Below are positions 10,689 through 14,167 of a stretch of 64,000 nt of DNA, one piece after another (position 1 is the first letter of the stretch; every line of letters begins with the position of its first letter). The notes beneath the pieces were generated by a model. It had not been told where the DNA came from and did no database searches. It saw nothing but the letters and a program-made list of their open reading frames with translations. The position numbers were made by a program, and so were the translations under genes. The stretch lies in assembly GCF_988242995.1 (NCBI RefSeq), contig NZ_OZ547043.1. One strand, given 5' to 3'.

Positions 10689-11057
10689 GTGTCAGACACA
10701 CTCCCCGGGACAACACTTCCCGACGACAATCACGACCGCCCCTGGTGGGGGCTGCCCTGCACCGTGACGCCCTGTTTCGGGGCACGTCTGGTGCAGGAGG
10801 GTAACCGGTTGCATTACCTTGCCGACCGCGCCGGTATCAGAGGCCTGTTCAGCGATGCAGATGCGTACCACCTGGACCAGGCCTTTCCGCTGCTGATGAA
10901 ACAACTGGAACTCATGCTCACCAGCGGTGAACTGAATCCCCGCCATCAGCATACCGTCACGCTGTATGCAAAAGGGCTGACCTGCAAAGCCGATACCCTC
11001 AGCAGTTGTGGTTACGTTTATCTGGCTGTTTATCCGACGCCCGAAATGAAAAATTAA
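10689..11057 (+). CDS. cbeA: CbeA (YeeU) antitoxin of the CbtA/CbeA type IV TA system
   Basis: GTG start, 122 aa, MSDTLPGTTLPDDNHDRPWWGLPC matches recalled YeeU. Confidence 0.8.
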   Translation: MSDTLPGTTLPDDNHDRPWWGLPCTVTPCFGARLVQEGNRLHYLADRAGIRGLFSDADAYHLDQAFPLLMKQLELMLTSGELNPRHQHTVTLYAKGLTCKADTLSSCGYVYLAVYPTPEMKN

Positions 11058-11145
11058 CTCTCCAGAATAGCCTTCTGCTACGGCCTGGTGTTTTCACCAC
11101 GCCACTTTTCCATTTTTATATCTGCATATCAGGAAAATCTTCAGT

Positions 11146-11519
11146 ATGAAAACATTACCTGTATTACCCGGGCAGGCGGCCAGTTCTCGCCCGTCTCCTG
11201 TTGAAATCTGGCAGATACTGCTGTCCCGACTGCTGGACCAGCACTATGGCCTCACACTGAATGACACACCTTTTGCCGATGAACGTGTGATTGAGCAGCA
11301 TATTGAGGCAGGCATTTCACTGTGTGATGCGGTGAACTTTCTCGTGGAAAAATACGCGCTGATGCTACCGACCAGCCGGGATTCAGCGCCTGTACCCGCT
11401 CTCAGTTAATAAACAGCATCGATATCCTCCGGGCTCGCAGGGCGACCGGCCTGATGACCCGCGACAATTACAGAACGGTAAATAACATTACCCTGGGTAA
11501 GTATCCGGAGGCGAAATGA
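11146..11519 (+). pseudogene. cbtA: cbtA (yeeV) toxin gene, frameshifted
   Basis: N-terminal 81 aa match recalled CbtA, then the frame terminates at 11409; the CbtA C-terminus ([39 protein letters not shown]) is encoded in the -1 frame ending at 11519; span is 374 nt, one short of the expected 375. Confidence 0.65.
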
Positions 11520-11710
11520 TGACACTGGAAGCCGACAGCGTTAACGTACAGGCGCTGGATATGGGGCACATTGTCGTTGACATTGATGGTGTTAATATCA
11601 CTGAACTGATTAATAAGGCCGCTGAAAACGGTTATTCACTCCGCGTGGTGGATGACCGTGACTCTACCGAAACACCGGCAACTTATGCCAGCCCTCACCA
11701 GTTGCTGTAA
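11516..11710 (+). CDS. yeeW: YeeW
   Basis: 64-aa ORF whose ATG overlaps the expected cbtA stop; CP4-44 synteny. Confidence 0.65.
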   Translation: MMTLEADSVNVQALDMGHIVVDIDGVNITELINKAAENGYSLRVVDDRDSTETPATYASPHQLL

Positions 11711-12124
11711 GACAATGCAGTGATGCAGGGTATAGTGCCATTAACCACAGAAACAGCACTGTTGTCCTGTATTAAGCAGGCAAGAGAAGATGTCCTTACC
11801 CTGCGCCATCTGCAGCTTCTGCACCAGAACCGGTGAATCTCACTCAACAGGCTTCATTTCCCCTGACGCCAGCCTGAATACAGCTGGCGTTTTCATTTAT
11901 AAACAGAAAGGAAAACCGATAATAATGGAATGGACGCCCCGACCATGAAGCAACGGTAGGATATTACTGATAAACCTTCCAGTGGAGGTGCGTTATGGCC
12001 GTTTTAACGATTAGCATTGACCTGACAAAAAATGAATTCCAAATCCACGGTCTGGGTAGGAACAGAAAAATCTAAGCTCAGAAAACGGATTAAAGTAAGC
12101 GTCAACGGAGCACCGTATTGACGC

Positions 12125-12330
12125 TTATTTATTGGTGAGAACTACGTTCCATGGCAGGAGTTCGTCAACACGGTTGGAGGGCCATTCCGGCAGTATGCTC
12201 AGAATATGGCGCAGATACGCTTCCGGATCGATACCGTTCAGACGGCAGGTGCCTGCTTTTCCGGCAACAAGCAGGAATCTCAGTGCTGAAGCAGGAATTA
12301 GAGGTAAAAACGCCCTACCGGGCCATGAAT
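12125..12330 (-). pseudogene. C-terminal fragment of an IS66-family-like transposase
   Basis: Minus-strand frame reads ...GKAGTCRLNGIDPEAYLRHILSILPEWPSNRVDELLPWNVVLTNK-stop with no upstream start; resembles IS66 TnpC C-terminus from memory. Confidence 0.4.
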
Positions 12331-12507
12331 CACCCGGTCATTGGAGTAGTAACCAAAGCAGATTTAGCCAGCATGGAACAAATATCTTTGGTGAAAAGTT
12401 GGTTACGGGAAGCTGGAGCGCACAACGTGTTAGTAACCAGTGCAGTTAATAACAATGGAGTTACAGAACTTTTTGCCTTGCTGCATACAGAAGAAGGCTG
12501 TTGTTAA
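12289..12507 (+). pseudogene. yoeF: EutP/PduV-family GTPase C-terminal fragment (yoeF-like)
   Basis: Frame encodes ...HPVIGVVTKADLASMEQISLVKSWLREAGAHNVLVTSAVNNNGVTELFALL; no credible N-terminal part. Confidence 0.45.
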
Positions 12508-12607
12508 TTTCGATTGGTTCTCAGATGAGAATGATGACGGTGATACACAGATAAGAATCAATGAGCAATGAGGGTTGCCGGGCAACCCTCATTGAATAAA
12601 ACGGGAA

Positions 12608-12937
12608 TTACTTCGCTTCGCCGTTTTTCATTTCGCCCATAGCTTTCAGCTTTTTGGAGATATCGCGGCGTTCTTTGGAGAGCTCGGCATTTTTGATGAT
12701 GTAATCGTCAACGCGATCTTCATAGTCACCTTTCATGCTGGCGATGATGCCCTGGATTGCTTCAACGCTCATCCCAGGCTTGATGTAATCGCTCAGGTTG
12801 TCCAGCAGCAGGACGCGCTTCTGGTTGTCACGGATCTTTTTCTCAACGTCCTGAATTTCACGTTGCAGTTTGTTCTTACGACGGAACAGACGAACAAATT
12901 CCAGTACGTCCTGGAATGAAGGCTTGGTAGTTTCCAT
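12608..12937 (-). CDS. yeeX: DUF496 protein YeeX
   Basis: 109 aa from [14 protein letters not shown]; matches recalled YeeX. Confidence 0.85.
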
Positions 12938-13108
12938 TTTTATACCCCTGATAATGTGAGAGTCGGATTCGTTTAAGCAACCGCTATTCGTTAGGGCCAA
13001 CATTACTCATAGCTGCCGCAGATGACAATGCTTTTATCCCTTTTCACTATCATACCCTTTATCCTTGCTGAATCGAAGCAGCAGCAAGATGATTCTGAAG
13101 TTCAGGAA

Positions 13109-14167
13109 TTATTTGCGCAAGGCCCGGCAAATCAGATTCGATAGCAACTCAAGCTGATGTGCCGTTTCCATGTTCAGCCACACATAACCATAGATTGGTG
13201 TTTCCACAACCTTCAGGTCATGGTGGTTATTGAGCAACTGACGCAGCTCTTCCACAGCATCGTTCAATTTTTCCGTATTGGCAAAAACCGGCTGCGGATT
13301 ACCTTCGTACAACGCATGAACAAGGCTCAGCAGTATTTGCTGCATCATGTGCTGGGTATCACGAAGTTTTTGCGCGTTCAATAACACGAAATGGCTGGGG
13401 CGCGTGGCCCAGTACGCATTGATTTGCAACTCCAGCATACAAACCAGATTGCGGTTAATGGTCTGGATACCTTCATATATCGATTTTGGAATACGGGTTT
13501 CTTTGCTGGCGGGCGCAATCAGCCCACGCATTTTCACGGCATCGGTCAGGAGTTTTTGTAGATGGCTTTCCAGACGTGGGCGTTCGAGTAAGTTCGGTGA
13601 GAATGCAGATTGATAGACCCGATTATACTCGGTCAGACTTTTCGCCAGTTGAATGCGCCAGTGGATGAACGCCCGTTGTGGCCAGATACCGGTAAACAAC
13701 ATTGCCAGTAAAGAGCCGAGGATCACATCGCCGCTTCGCCATAACGCCGTATCAATTTCACCTGTCGGGGAACCAACAACAATTGCCAGCGTCACCCCAA
13801 TCAATAATCCTTGATACGGTTTCTTGCCCAGCGCCAGCCAACCGCAAAGAAACATAGCCGCCGCGCACCAGACTAACATCAGCGGTAACGAGATTAACTC
13901 CAGTTGCAGAGCGATAAGACCTAATATCGAACCCAACACCGTACCGCCAATACGTTCGAAGGCGCGAGGGACAACGTTACCCCAGAACGAGATTGGCCCC
14001 ATAATCACCACCATGGTGACCAGCGGCCAGGTACTTTCCGGGATAGTAAACAGGCGGATAATGAGAAAAGTGAGCAGGAATGCCAGCGCGACCCGAGTAC
14101 CATGCACAATGCGGTAATGGCGGTATACCCGGATTTCAAACGGGCTTAATGACTTATCGGCACGCAC
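13109..14167 (-). CDS. yeeA: inner membrane protein YeeA (FUSC-like)
   Basis: 352-aa multi-pass membrane ORF in K-12 synteny. Confidence 0.8.
   Translation of the reverse strand: MRADKSLSPFEIRVYRHYRIVHGTRVALAFLLTFLIIRLFTIPESTWPLVTMVVIMGPISFWGNVVPRAFERIGGTVLGSILGLIALQLELISLPLMLVWCAAAMFLCGWLALGKKPYQGLLIGVTLAIVVGSPTGEIDTALWRSGDVILGSLLAMLFTGIWPQRAFIHWRIQLAKSLTEYNRVYQSAFSPNLLERPRLESHLQKLLTDAVKMRGLIAPASKETRIPKSIYEGIQTINRNLVCMLELQINAYWATRPSHFVLLNAQKLRDTQHMMQQILLSLVHALYEGNPQPVFANTEKLNDAVEELRQLLNNHHDLKVVETPIYGYVWLNMETAHQLELLSNLICRALRK

Follow-up and report, generated by a model that had tools for sequence, protein, structure and literature searches.

The cryptic prophage CP4-44 has been described as occupying the cobU–yeeX interval of the Escherichia coli chromosome and as being absent from E. 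coli W (PMC3032704). In the K-12 record, 'cryptic prophage CP4-44' terminates at the base equivalent to position 12324 of the 64,000-nt stretch of DNA analysed here (the window), and two features are named at this end, yoeD (b4642, a pseudogene) and yoeF (b4538, listed as a CDS). The presence of these pieces at the CP4-44 edge is already known and annotated in K-12, and yoeF is still counted among the uncharacterised protein-coding 'y-genes' of this strain. The yoeF gene was found to be the most divergent of its neighbourhood, with 94.2% nucleotide and 87.2% amino acid identity (PMC5359238), and CRISPRi targeting of 'yoeD' was reported to alter the spread of ampicillin MIC and the rate of resazurin reduction (PMC5311112).

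The closest described systems differ in how much of each is left in the window. Elements ISEc23 and ISEc47 of the IS66 family are 2.5 kb long, carry tnpA–tnpB–tnpC and are flanked by an 8-bp target duplication. The window shares with them the terminal 159 bp at 99.4% identity, the GTAAGCG... terminal repeat and the final 42 DDE transposase codons, but it keeps 6% of the element, with one end and no tnpA/tnpB, catalytic domain or target duplication. The likeness to the IS110 family (IS1111-like subgroup) lies in the region of the N-terminal motif MxVxTxxIDLxKNxFxxHG; sister strains also share the Transposase_20 domain, subterminal repeats, a short left and a long right non-coding end and a duplication of 2–3 bp or less. 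Unlike intact IS110 elements, this relic is degenerate, with frameshifts and stops, even in the strains that have it at full length, and only 171 bp of it lie in the window; the closest intact relative compared, ISShdy1, shows a protein identity of only 45–55%. PduV of the propanediol-utilisation (pdu) microcompartment operon (PF10662, EutP/PduV small GTPase) shares with the window its last 60 residues, at 93% identity, and an orthologous chromosomal position, whereas residues 1–87 with the P-loop are missing, no pdu operon lies upstream and the piece is fused to unrelated island DNA.

The right arm of an intact CP4-type island agrees with the window in the order antirestriction – radC/yeeS – yeeT – cbeA/cbtA – DUF5983 – DUF957 – DUF4942, at 76–92% nucleotide identity. 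In the window, however, the DUF5983 and DUF957 genes are truncated, no more than 71 bp of the DUF4942 gene are left, and everything past it, with parDE and the end of the island, has been lost. CP4-44 of K-12 occupies the same locus and has the same pieces, yoeD corresponding to 12125–12253 (−) and yoeF to 12151–12507 (+), but the S88-like island in the window has a dynamin/GTPase/patatin cluster instead of flu–yeeR and a frameshifted cbtA. In the K-12 annotation the IS110 stub and the DUF4942 piece are unnamed, and the three-part chimeric nature of yoeF is not remarked.

Organisation of the island edge

The feature under study spans positions 12125–12507, at the edge of the island. Over its first 14 kb the window matches E. 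coli S88, and with it several further strains of ExPEC and avian origin, at 100% identity. Positions 11700–12620 match K-12 MG1655 (NC_000913.3, 2078124–2079044) with 99.5% identity, and comparison of the island right arm with K-12 gave 99.2–99.5%. The RefSeq gene order in S88 is yeeS, yeeT, cbeA, frameshifted cbtA, yeeW, a DUF957 fragment, a transposase pseudogene, a EutP/PduV CDS, tmaR (yeeX) and yeeA. On the identical S88 sequence, RefSeq places a 'transposase domain-containing' pseudogene at 12125–12262 (−) and a 'EutP/PduV family' CDS at 12325–12507 (+). The arm is collinear through yeeS–yeeT–cbeA–cbtA–yeeW up to the K-12 boundary at 12324. The window-type arrangement was found in 3,162 genomes of the comparison set of 5,426 complete E. 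coli genomes, and its carriers include K-12, S88, CFT073, O157:H7, O145, O111, BL21-type strains and E. coli C.

The region is very probably a non-functional scar, produced by ordinary genome decay, that forms the right edge of a genomic island of the CP4-44 type in the cobU–tmaR interval. The alignments show a mosaic of five truncated pieces: a pair of IS stubs, a pair of stubs of island genes, and the end of pduV, the propanediol gene that the host has lost. None of the pieces is expected to work as a gene. Feature coordinates are collected in Table 1.

The original prediction had described this edge as a mosaic of remnants of an IS66-like transposase gene and a EutP/PduV-like gene, recording past IS insertion and deletion at a prophage boundary. 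As a whole this interpretation is supported, and its main claims survive testing with refinements. Similarity to the IS66 and EutP families was sought and found for both (Pfam, BLASTP), and the fragments indeed have no N-termini, only the last 42 codons of the IS66 transposase and the last 60 of PduV being left. The mosaic has more than the two parts proposed, including the IS110-family left end at 11924–12094 and the DUF4942 piece. The two fragments do not abut, as had been stated: IS66 homology ends at 12253 and pduV homology starts at 12325, with a 71-bp DUF4942 remnant between them. A history of IS insertion and deletion agrees with the sister locus L009 described below, where 1,311 bp stand in place of 159 bp; its position has to be corrected, the events lying inside the terminal DNA of the island and the joint itself at 12324–12332.

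Table 1. Features at the right edge of the island (window coordinates)
Feature	Coordinates	Strand	Evidence
yeeW, truncated DUF5983 gene, 64 aa, N-terminal domain only	11516–11710	+	Pfam DUF5983_N, E = 2e-29; RefSeq annotation
DUF957 gene, C-terminal fragment	11744–11836	+	RefSeq pseudogene annotation
Hairpin and T-tract TTTTCATTT in the DUF957–DUF4942 intergenic region	11865–11898	+	folding
IS110-family left end: 71 bp non-coding with subterminal repeat ATGGACGCCCC, and first 33 codons	11924–12094	+	comparison with L009; tblastn
Right end of an ISEc23-like IS66-family element (K-12 yoeD)	12095–12253	−	99.4% over 159 bp with intact ISEc23; Pfam; BLASTP
yoeF ORF, 118 aa, chimera	12151–12507	+	antisense IS66 12151–12253, DUF4942' 12254–12324, pduV' 12325–12507
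DUF4942 gene fragment, about codons 41–64, in its native frame in the yoeF ORF	12254–12324	+	homology with L011 and L009
Island/chromosome joint, 8-nt microhomology ATGAATCA (DUF4942 ATGAAACA, pduV ATGAATCG)	12325–12332		alignment; K-12 CP4-44 end at 12324
pduV', last 60 codons (88–147) and stop of the chromosomal propanediol-utilisation GTPase gene	12325–12507	+	comparison with E20 pduV; Pfam
Perfect 14 + 14 inverted repeat between pduV' and tmaR	12566–12594		repeat search; folding
tmaR (yeeX), first intact core-chromosome gene right of the mosaic	12608–12937	−	annotation

IS66-family stub (yoeD)

The minus-strand translation of 12128–12298 matches Pfam DDE_Tnp_IS66_C (E = 1e-15), and BLASTP of the stub protein gave 86% identity to residues 487–537 of the 537-aa ISEc23 transposase (E = 2e-29). 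The minus-strand IS66 C-terminal fragment proposed earlier is thereby confirmed, and its proposed start, 12125, is the stop codon of the remnant (12125–12127). The last 42 codons occupy 12128–12253, and the catalytic core is absent.

At the nucleotide level, 12095–12253 shows 99.4% identity to the initial 159 bp of an intact ISEc23 copy of 2,541 bp, including the terminal repeat GTAAGCGTCAACGG. Position 12095 is the first base of this IS66-type terminal inverted repeat in the plus-strand reading; GTAAGCGTCAACGGAGCACCG, a repeat of the 5'-GTAAGCG type, begins here and is identical to the ISEc23 end, and the flanks diverge directly outside. Alignment with intact plasmid copies of ISEc23 and ISEc47 showed near-perfect identity over 12095–12253 and complete divergence left of 12095 and right of 12253. 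Since the reference ISEc23 copy, with its 2,541 bp, is flanked by an 8-bp target duplication, AAATTAAC, 12095 is a true transposition end. The joint between IS110 and IS66 DNA (12094/12095) is an exact IS terminus, and the joint between IS66 and DUF4942 DNA (12253/12254) is blunt, with no microhomology.

The stub comprises 159 of 2,541 bp with one end and no tnpA–tnpB–tnpC set; it is a fragment of an IS66 family member and not itself a member. By comparison with ISEc23, it retains one end and 8% of its transposase, and as the second end, tnpA/tnpB and the catalytic domain are missing, it cannot move. Other pieces of the ISEc23-like element were not detected elsewhere in the 64-kb window. It had been suggested that flanking inverted repeats or a target duplication might be found at the IS66 remnant; the repeat search around the stub returned only chance-level short matches, because a single IS66 end survives. 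The IS66 end also holds its own 13-nt inverted repeat, AAGTAAGCGTCAA / TTGACGCTTATTT, around the transposase stop codon (12093–12130), which is likewise present in intact ISEc23 and ISEc47.

IS110-family stub and the sister locus of strain 167

E. coli strain 167 has a sister locus (L009) with an uninterrupted IS110 relic. The order of genes in this locus is DUF957', a 1,029-nt 'IS110 family RNA-guided transposase' pseudogene, a DUF4942'::pduV' ORF of 121 aa annotated as 'EutP/PduV', and tmaR, with no IS66 DNA. Window positions 11700–12094 correspond to L009 2864–3258 at 99.5% identity and positions 12254–12620 to L009 4570–4936 at 97.8%. Given these collinear flanks, the window bears a 159-bp IS66 end that replaces 1,311 bp. 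The IS110-intact type, defined by coverage of at least 80% of the L009 version, is represented by 568 of the 5,426 genomes.

The stub itself (11924–12094) is 99.4% identical to L009 3088–3258. Its reading frame begins with the ATG at 11995 and runs into a stop behind codon 26. Positions 11995–12054 encode MAVLTISIDLTKNEFQIHGL, which aligns to the N-terminus of IS110-family transposase; amino acids 1–20 of the ISShdy1 transposase are 55% identical to this segment (tblastn, E about 1e-5 in a tiny search space). Pfam gave no match for the 26-aa N-terminal ORF, which is too short. The rest of the L009 relic aligns to the ISShdy1 transposase in shifted frames, and the downstream L009 ORF matches Pfam Transposase_20 with E = 8.7e-11.

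The relic occupies L009 3088–4456 (window 11924 onward) and is positioned exactly at the DUF4942 start codon, as judged against the uninterrupted island L011. In L009 it features subterminal inverted repeats ATGGACGCCCC / GGGGCGACCAT, a duplication of at most 2–3 bp and non-coding ends of 71 bp on the left and 269 bp on the right, which is an IS1111-like layout. The 269-bp right end, where IS1111-type elements would carry the guide RNA, is deleted in the window. Rfam scans of window 11000–13200 and of L009 gave no match at E ≤ 1, although Rfam 15 possibly has no bridge/seek RNA family. An independent intact copy of the IS110-family relic was not found in the E. coli collection. A candidate for such an independent copy, by which the element ends could be located, was the IS110 copy of strain WS0115A (L010). 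It was rejected, since it shares the breakpoint at 4438 with locus L012 of another strain, where the relic is interrupted by IS100, and probably derives from that locus by rearrangement.

DUF4942 fragment and the island/chromosome joint

An intact CP4-type island adjoining cadC in strain 2018-166 (L011), with the order DUF5983 – DUF957 – DUF4942 – parDE, was used as a paralogous reference. Positions 12256–12332 of the window align with L011 3122–3201, inside the DUF4942 CDS, with 76% identity (E = 7e-10). In L009, positions 4457–4648 represent the first ~200 nt of the DUF4942 gene (201 nt at 77.6%, E = 4e-40; 55% amino acid identity over 67 residues, E = 2e-16), and they are contiguous from the DUF4942 ATG; window 12254–12324 is the last third of this remnant. 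The window's own 23-aa piece is too short to give a significant match to the full protein (BLASTP, E = 0.37), so its identity as DUF4942 is based on the nucleotide homology and the longer L009 remnant. Among the 5,426 genomes, 4,239 carry this piece.

The DUF4942 homology extends to 12332, the pduV homology begins at 12325, and the resulting DUF4942'::pduV' fusion is in frame. The interval 12324–12332 has the appearance of a microhomology-mediated deletion joint between the island and the chromosome. The right edge of the island has no tRNA, integrase or att site. In strain AHM21C2872I, the DUF4942 piece contains a complete ISCro1 of the IS66 family (L008 1302–4000) with an 8-bp duplication of 12276–12283. 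This insertion is a second, independent IS66-family strike about 30 bp from the old stub.

pduV tail and the propanediol operon

A plus-strand EutP/PduV C-terminal fragment (yoeF), the other remnant recognised in the original prediction, was recovered as well. ORF 12151–12507 matches the Pfam PduV-EutP profile only through ORF residues 57–112, corresponding to profile positions 86–142 of 143 (E = 6.7e-13), and it is 93% identical to residues 87–146 of the full-length 147-aa E. coli PduV (E = 3e-39). Positions 12325–12507 are 96.2% identical to nt 262–444 of the intact pduV of strain E20. The score against NCBIfam TIGR02528 is 42 bits versus a cut-off of 138 for full-length EutP/PduV. The P-loop (GxxxxGK[ST]), which in E20 PduV is GPSQCGKTS at residues 8–16, is absent, as the homology in the window begins at residue 87–88. 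No pdu genes were found upstream in the window.

In strain E20, the intact 147-aa pduV is the last gene of a complete pocR–pduF–pduA..V operon and directly adjoins tmaR. Classes of matches were obtained by searching window 12254–12620 against the 5,426 genomes, and the E20 match starts at 12325. The 5' half of pduV is present in 644 of the 5,426 genomes, and about 12% of complete genomes keep the pdu operon at this site. E. coli W has no island; cobU is followed by a flank of about 180 bp and then by the pduV tail and tmaR, in agreement with the published placement of CP4-44 between cobU and yeeX. Taken together, the comparisons indicate that the pduV piece is a relic of the host's own pdu operon, and not island or prophage cargo. 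The tail can serve as a marker for tracing the loss of the propanediol operon among E. coli lineages.

The E20 locus (L016 9738–13265) contains cobU, a hypothetical ORF of 146 aa, a cobalamin riboswitch, pocR and pduF. Of the cbi genes for biosynthesis only the riboswitch leader is left; at the other end the operon stops with pduV, with no pduW or pduX before tmaR.

The possibility that the DNA upstream of the tail in W is a longer, diverged pduV remnant was rejected, the local alignment score of 18 being at chance level (shuffle mean 16.4, maximum 28); this DNA is really the cobU-side flank. The island-free W locus was also considered as the state before island insertion and rejected: in strains with the island the cobU-side flank that is left is 118 bp longer than in W, and W consequently represents an independent deletion from a pdu-positive ancestor. 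The W-type joint is at about 12331–12333 of the window (L005 5990–6004) and the island joint at 12324–12332, so that no more than 8 bp of pduV separate the two. In a third class of genomes the truncation of pduV falls at nt 146.

Proposed history of the edge

The identities of the segments, their boundaries and the existence of earlier states are documented by the alignments above, and from them we infer the order and mechanism of the deletions. The ancestor would have had pocR–pduF–pduA..pduV ending beside tmaR. A CP4-type island carrying antirestriction, yeeS, yeeT, cbeA/cbtA, DUF5983, DUF957, DUF4942 and further genes would then have come into the interval. An IS110-family element (IS1111-like, with subterminal repeats) would have inserted at the DUF4942 start codon. 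Through an illegitimate deletion at the 8-nt microhomology (C)ATGAATC(A/G), about codon 64 of DUF4942 would have become fused to codon 88 of pduV; this deletion would have removed the rest of the island right arm and the 5' part of pduV (at least codons 1–87) and left the in-frame DUF4942'::pduV' ORF. Counted against pdu-positive strains, and with the left boundary of the island included, the net loss would extend from the cobU-side flank to pduV codon 87. Either order is possible for the IS110 insertion and the DUF4942::pduV fusion.

Subsequently, an ISEc23-like IS66 element entered the IS110 transposase gene at codon 33 by transposition, as the exact IS terminus at 12095 shows. A final blunt deletion without microhomology would then have taken out 2,382 bp of the IS66 along with the presumed 8-bp target duplication, as well as 1,311 bp of DNA from IS110 and DUF4942, and joined IS66 position 159 to about codon 41 of DUF4942. 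The predicted junction of the intermediate, a full IS66 in IS110, is CGCTTAC-GGATTAAA-CGTTCCCTGATG. The combination of the IS66 left end, GGATTAAA and IS110 was found in none of the 5,426 genomes at ≥80% coverage, and the insertion-then-deletion step is accordingly read from the one intact IS end. This island edge illustrates clearly how IS insertions and deletions accumulate in layers; the understanding of IS66, of IS110 and of microcompartment biology is unchanged by these results.

Alternative explanations and the status of yoeF

Instead of having formed in this lineage by insertion and deletion, the IS66 stub could have been acquired ready-made from a donor island through homologous recombination, or by gene conversion replacing the IS110 DNA. 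This route is possible, though we consider it rather unlikely. The occurrence of the stub arrangement in many differently named strains and serotypes suggests spread by recombination, and the absence of the intermediate among 5,426 genomes agrees with such a route; recombination, however, explains the spread and not the origin, and the IS terminus at 12095 against IS110 codon 33, together with the internal breakpoint at 12253, still requires one transposition and one deletion somewhere. As to the PduV-like fragment, its origin as cargo of the CP4-44 island, in the form of a prophage-borne EutP-like gene, is extremely improbable. A y-ome survey groups yoeF with the CP4-44 genes (PMC11551758) and the annotated ORF starts inside island DNA, but in strain E20 intact pduV takes exactly this position, closing a complete pdu operon that adjoins tmaR, with 96% identity over 12325–12507. 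Moreover, E. coli W retains the pduV tail without the island, paralogous CP4-type islands elsewhere have DUF4942–parDE and no PduV at this end, and the K-12 record itself ends the prophage at 12324.

The yoeF ORF overlaps the IS66 piece in antisense, and its start varies with strain class: it has 121 aa from the DUF4942 ATG in L009 and 118 aa from antisense IS66 in the window, and in W a stop occurs at codon 2. By its three-part anatomy, yoeF is an accidental ORF. It seems highly improbable that the 118-aa product, or the PduV tail of 60 aa, is genuinely expressed as a gene, whether as a mini-protein that has been domesticated or as a transcript with a regulatory role in concert with the antisense yoeD stub, even though yoeF is annotated as a CDS in K-12 and 12325–12507 is annotated by PGAP, the DUF4942'::pduV' fusion is in frame, the arrangement is retained across thousands of genomes and CRISPRi phenotypes were reported for yoeD (PMC5311112). 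The first 87 of 147 GTPase residues are missing, and with them the whole P-loop half including GPSQCGKTS; by direct reading of the sequence, neither ATG has a Shine-Dalgarno at a usable distance; and the start is not constant between strain classes. Replacement differences in the yoeF tail are about as frequent as silent ones between strains, in keeping with the reported divergence (PMC5359238), although pN/pS was derived from 2–8 differences and would be compatible with constraint as well. New IS elements land in the ORF without apparent penalty, and high retention is expected of neutral DNA beside an essential-region core gene. The anatomy of the locus suggests no mechanism for the CRISPRi phenotypes of yoeD. 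A scar that is not entirely inert, with the in-frame DUF4942'::PduV' ORF or a tmaR read-through transcript over the yoeD stub having gained a small regulatory role, at which the CRISPRi study hints, or with the 12-bp pduV stretch ATGAATCGCCCG acting as a deletion hotspot, is very unlikely as well. The hotspot reading draws on two independent large deletions that end within 8 bp of each other at ATGAATCGCCCG, and coincidence is the alternative.

Under the preferred reading of an accidental ORF, the practical value of the results concerns annotation. We advise that yoeF, being a three-part accidental ORF, be treated as a pseudogene; thousands of genomes carry a PGAP call of 60 aa under the name 'EutP/PduV family microcompartment system protein'.

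Hairpins and neighbouring genes of the right arm

A hairpin with a T-tract upstream of the mosaic, noted in the original prediction, was confirmed by folding at 11865–11891 (−16.1 kcal/mol, z = −5.3, with 0 of 200 shuffles folding as well), and TTTTCATTT follows directly. Compared with the paralogous L011, its stem is invariant and its loop is variable. The hairpin is a probable intrinsic terminator of CP4-type islands. The palindrome at 12566–12594 folds with ΔG of −21.8 kcal/mol on one strand and −21.0 kcal/mol on the other (z about −5) and is kept in every locus class compared; it is probably a bidirectional terminator common to the convergent pdu operon and tmaR. A scan with a consensus terminator model called neither hairpin, owing to its rules on loop size and T-tract, and the loop of 11865–11891 is over the limit.

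The intact DUF5983 paralogue in L011 encodes 162 aa with both domains. Window 11754–11923 aligns with L011 2835–3003, comprising the 3' end of DUF957 and the intergenic region, with 83.5% identity; the 38-aa DUF957 piece, which is too short, had no match in Pfam. Relative to L011, about 360–460 bp are missing between the yeeW and DUF957 remnants (11516–11836), which represents a further internal deletion.

The toxin gene cbtA (11146–11519) is frameshifted in the window, with an ORF of 87 aa that covers Pfam CbtA_toxin positions 1–73 of 112, whereas cbtA of K-12 is intact. The antitoxin gene cbeA (10689–11057) is intact. The island body at 1536–6991 contains genes of a GTPase family, of the dynamin family (2.4 kb) and of the RdcB family, and a gene for a patatin-like phospholipase. 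This cluster may constitute a dynamin-type defence or membrane-remodelling module.
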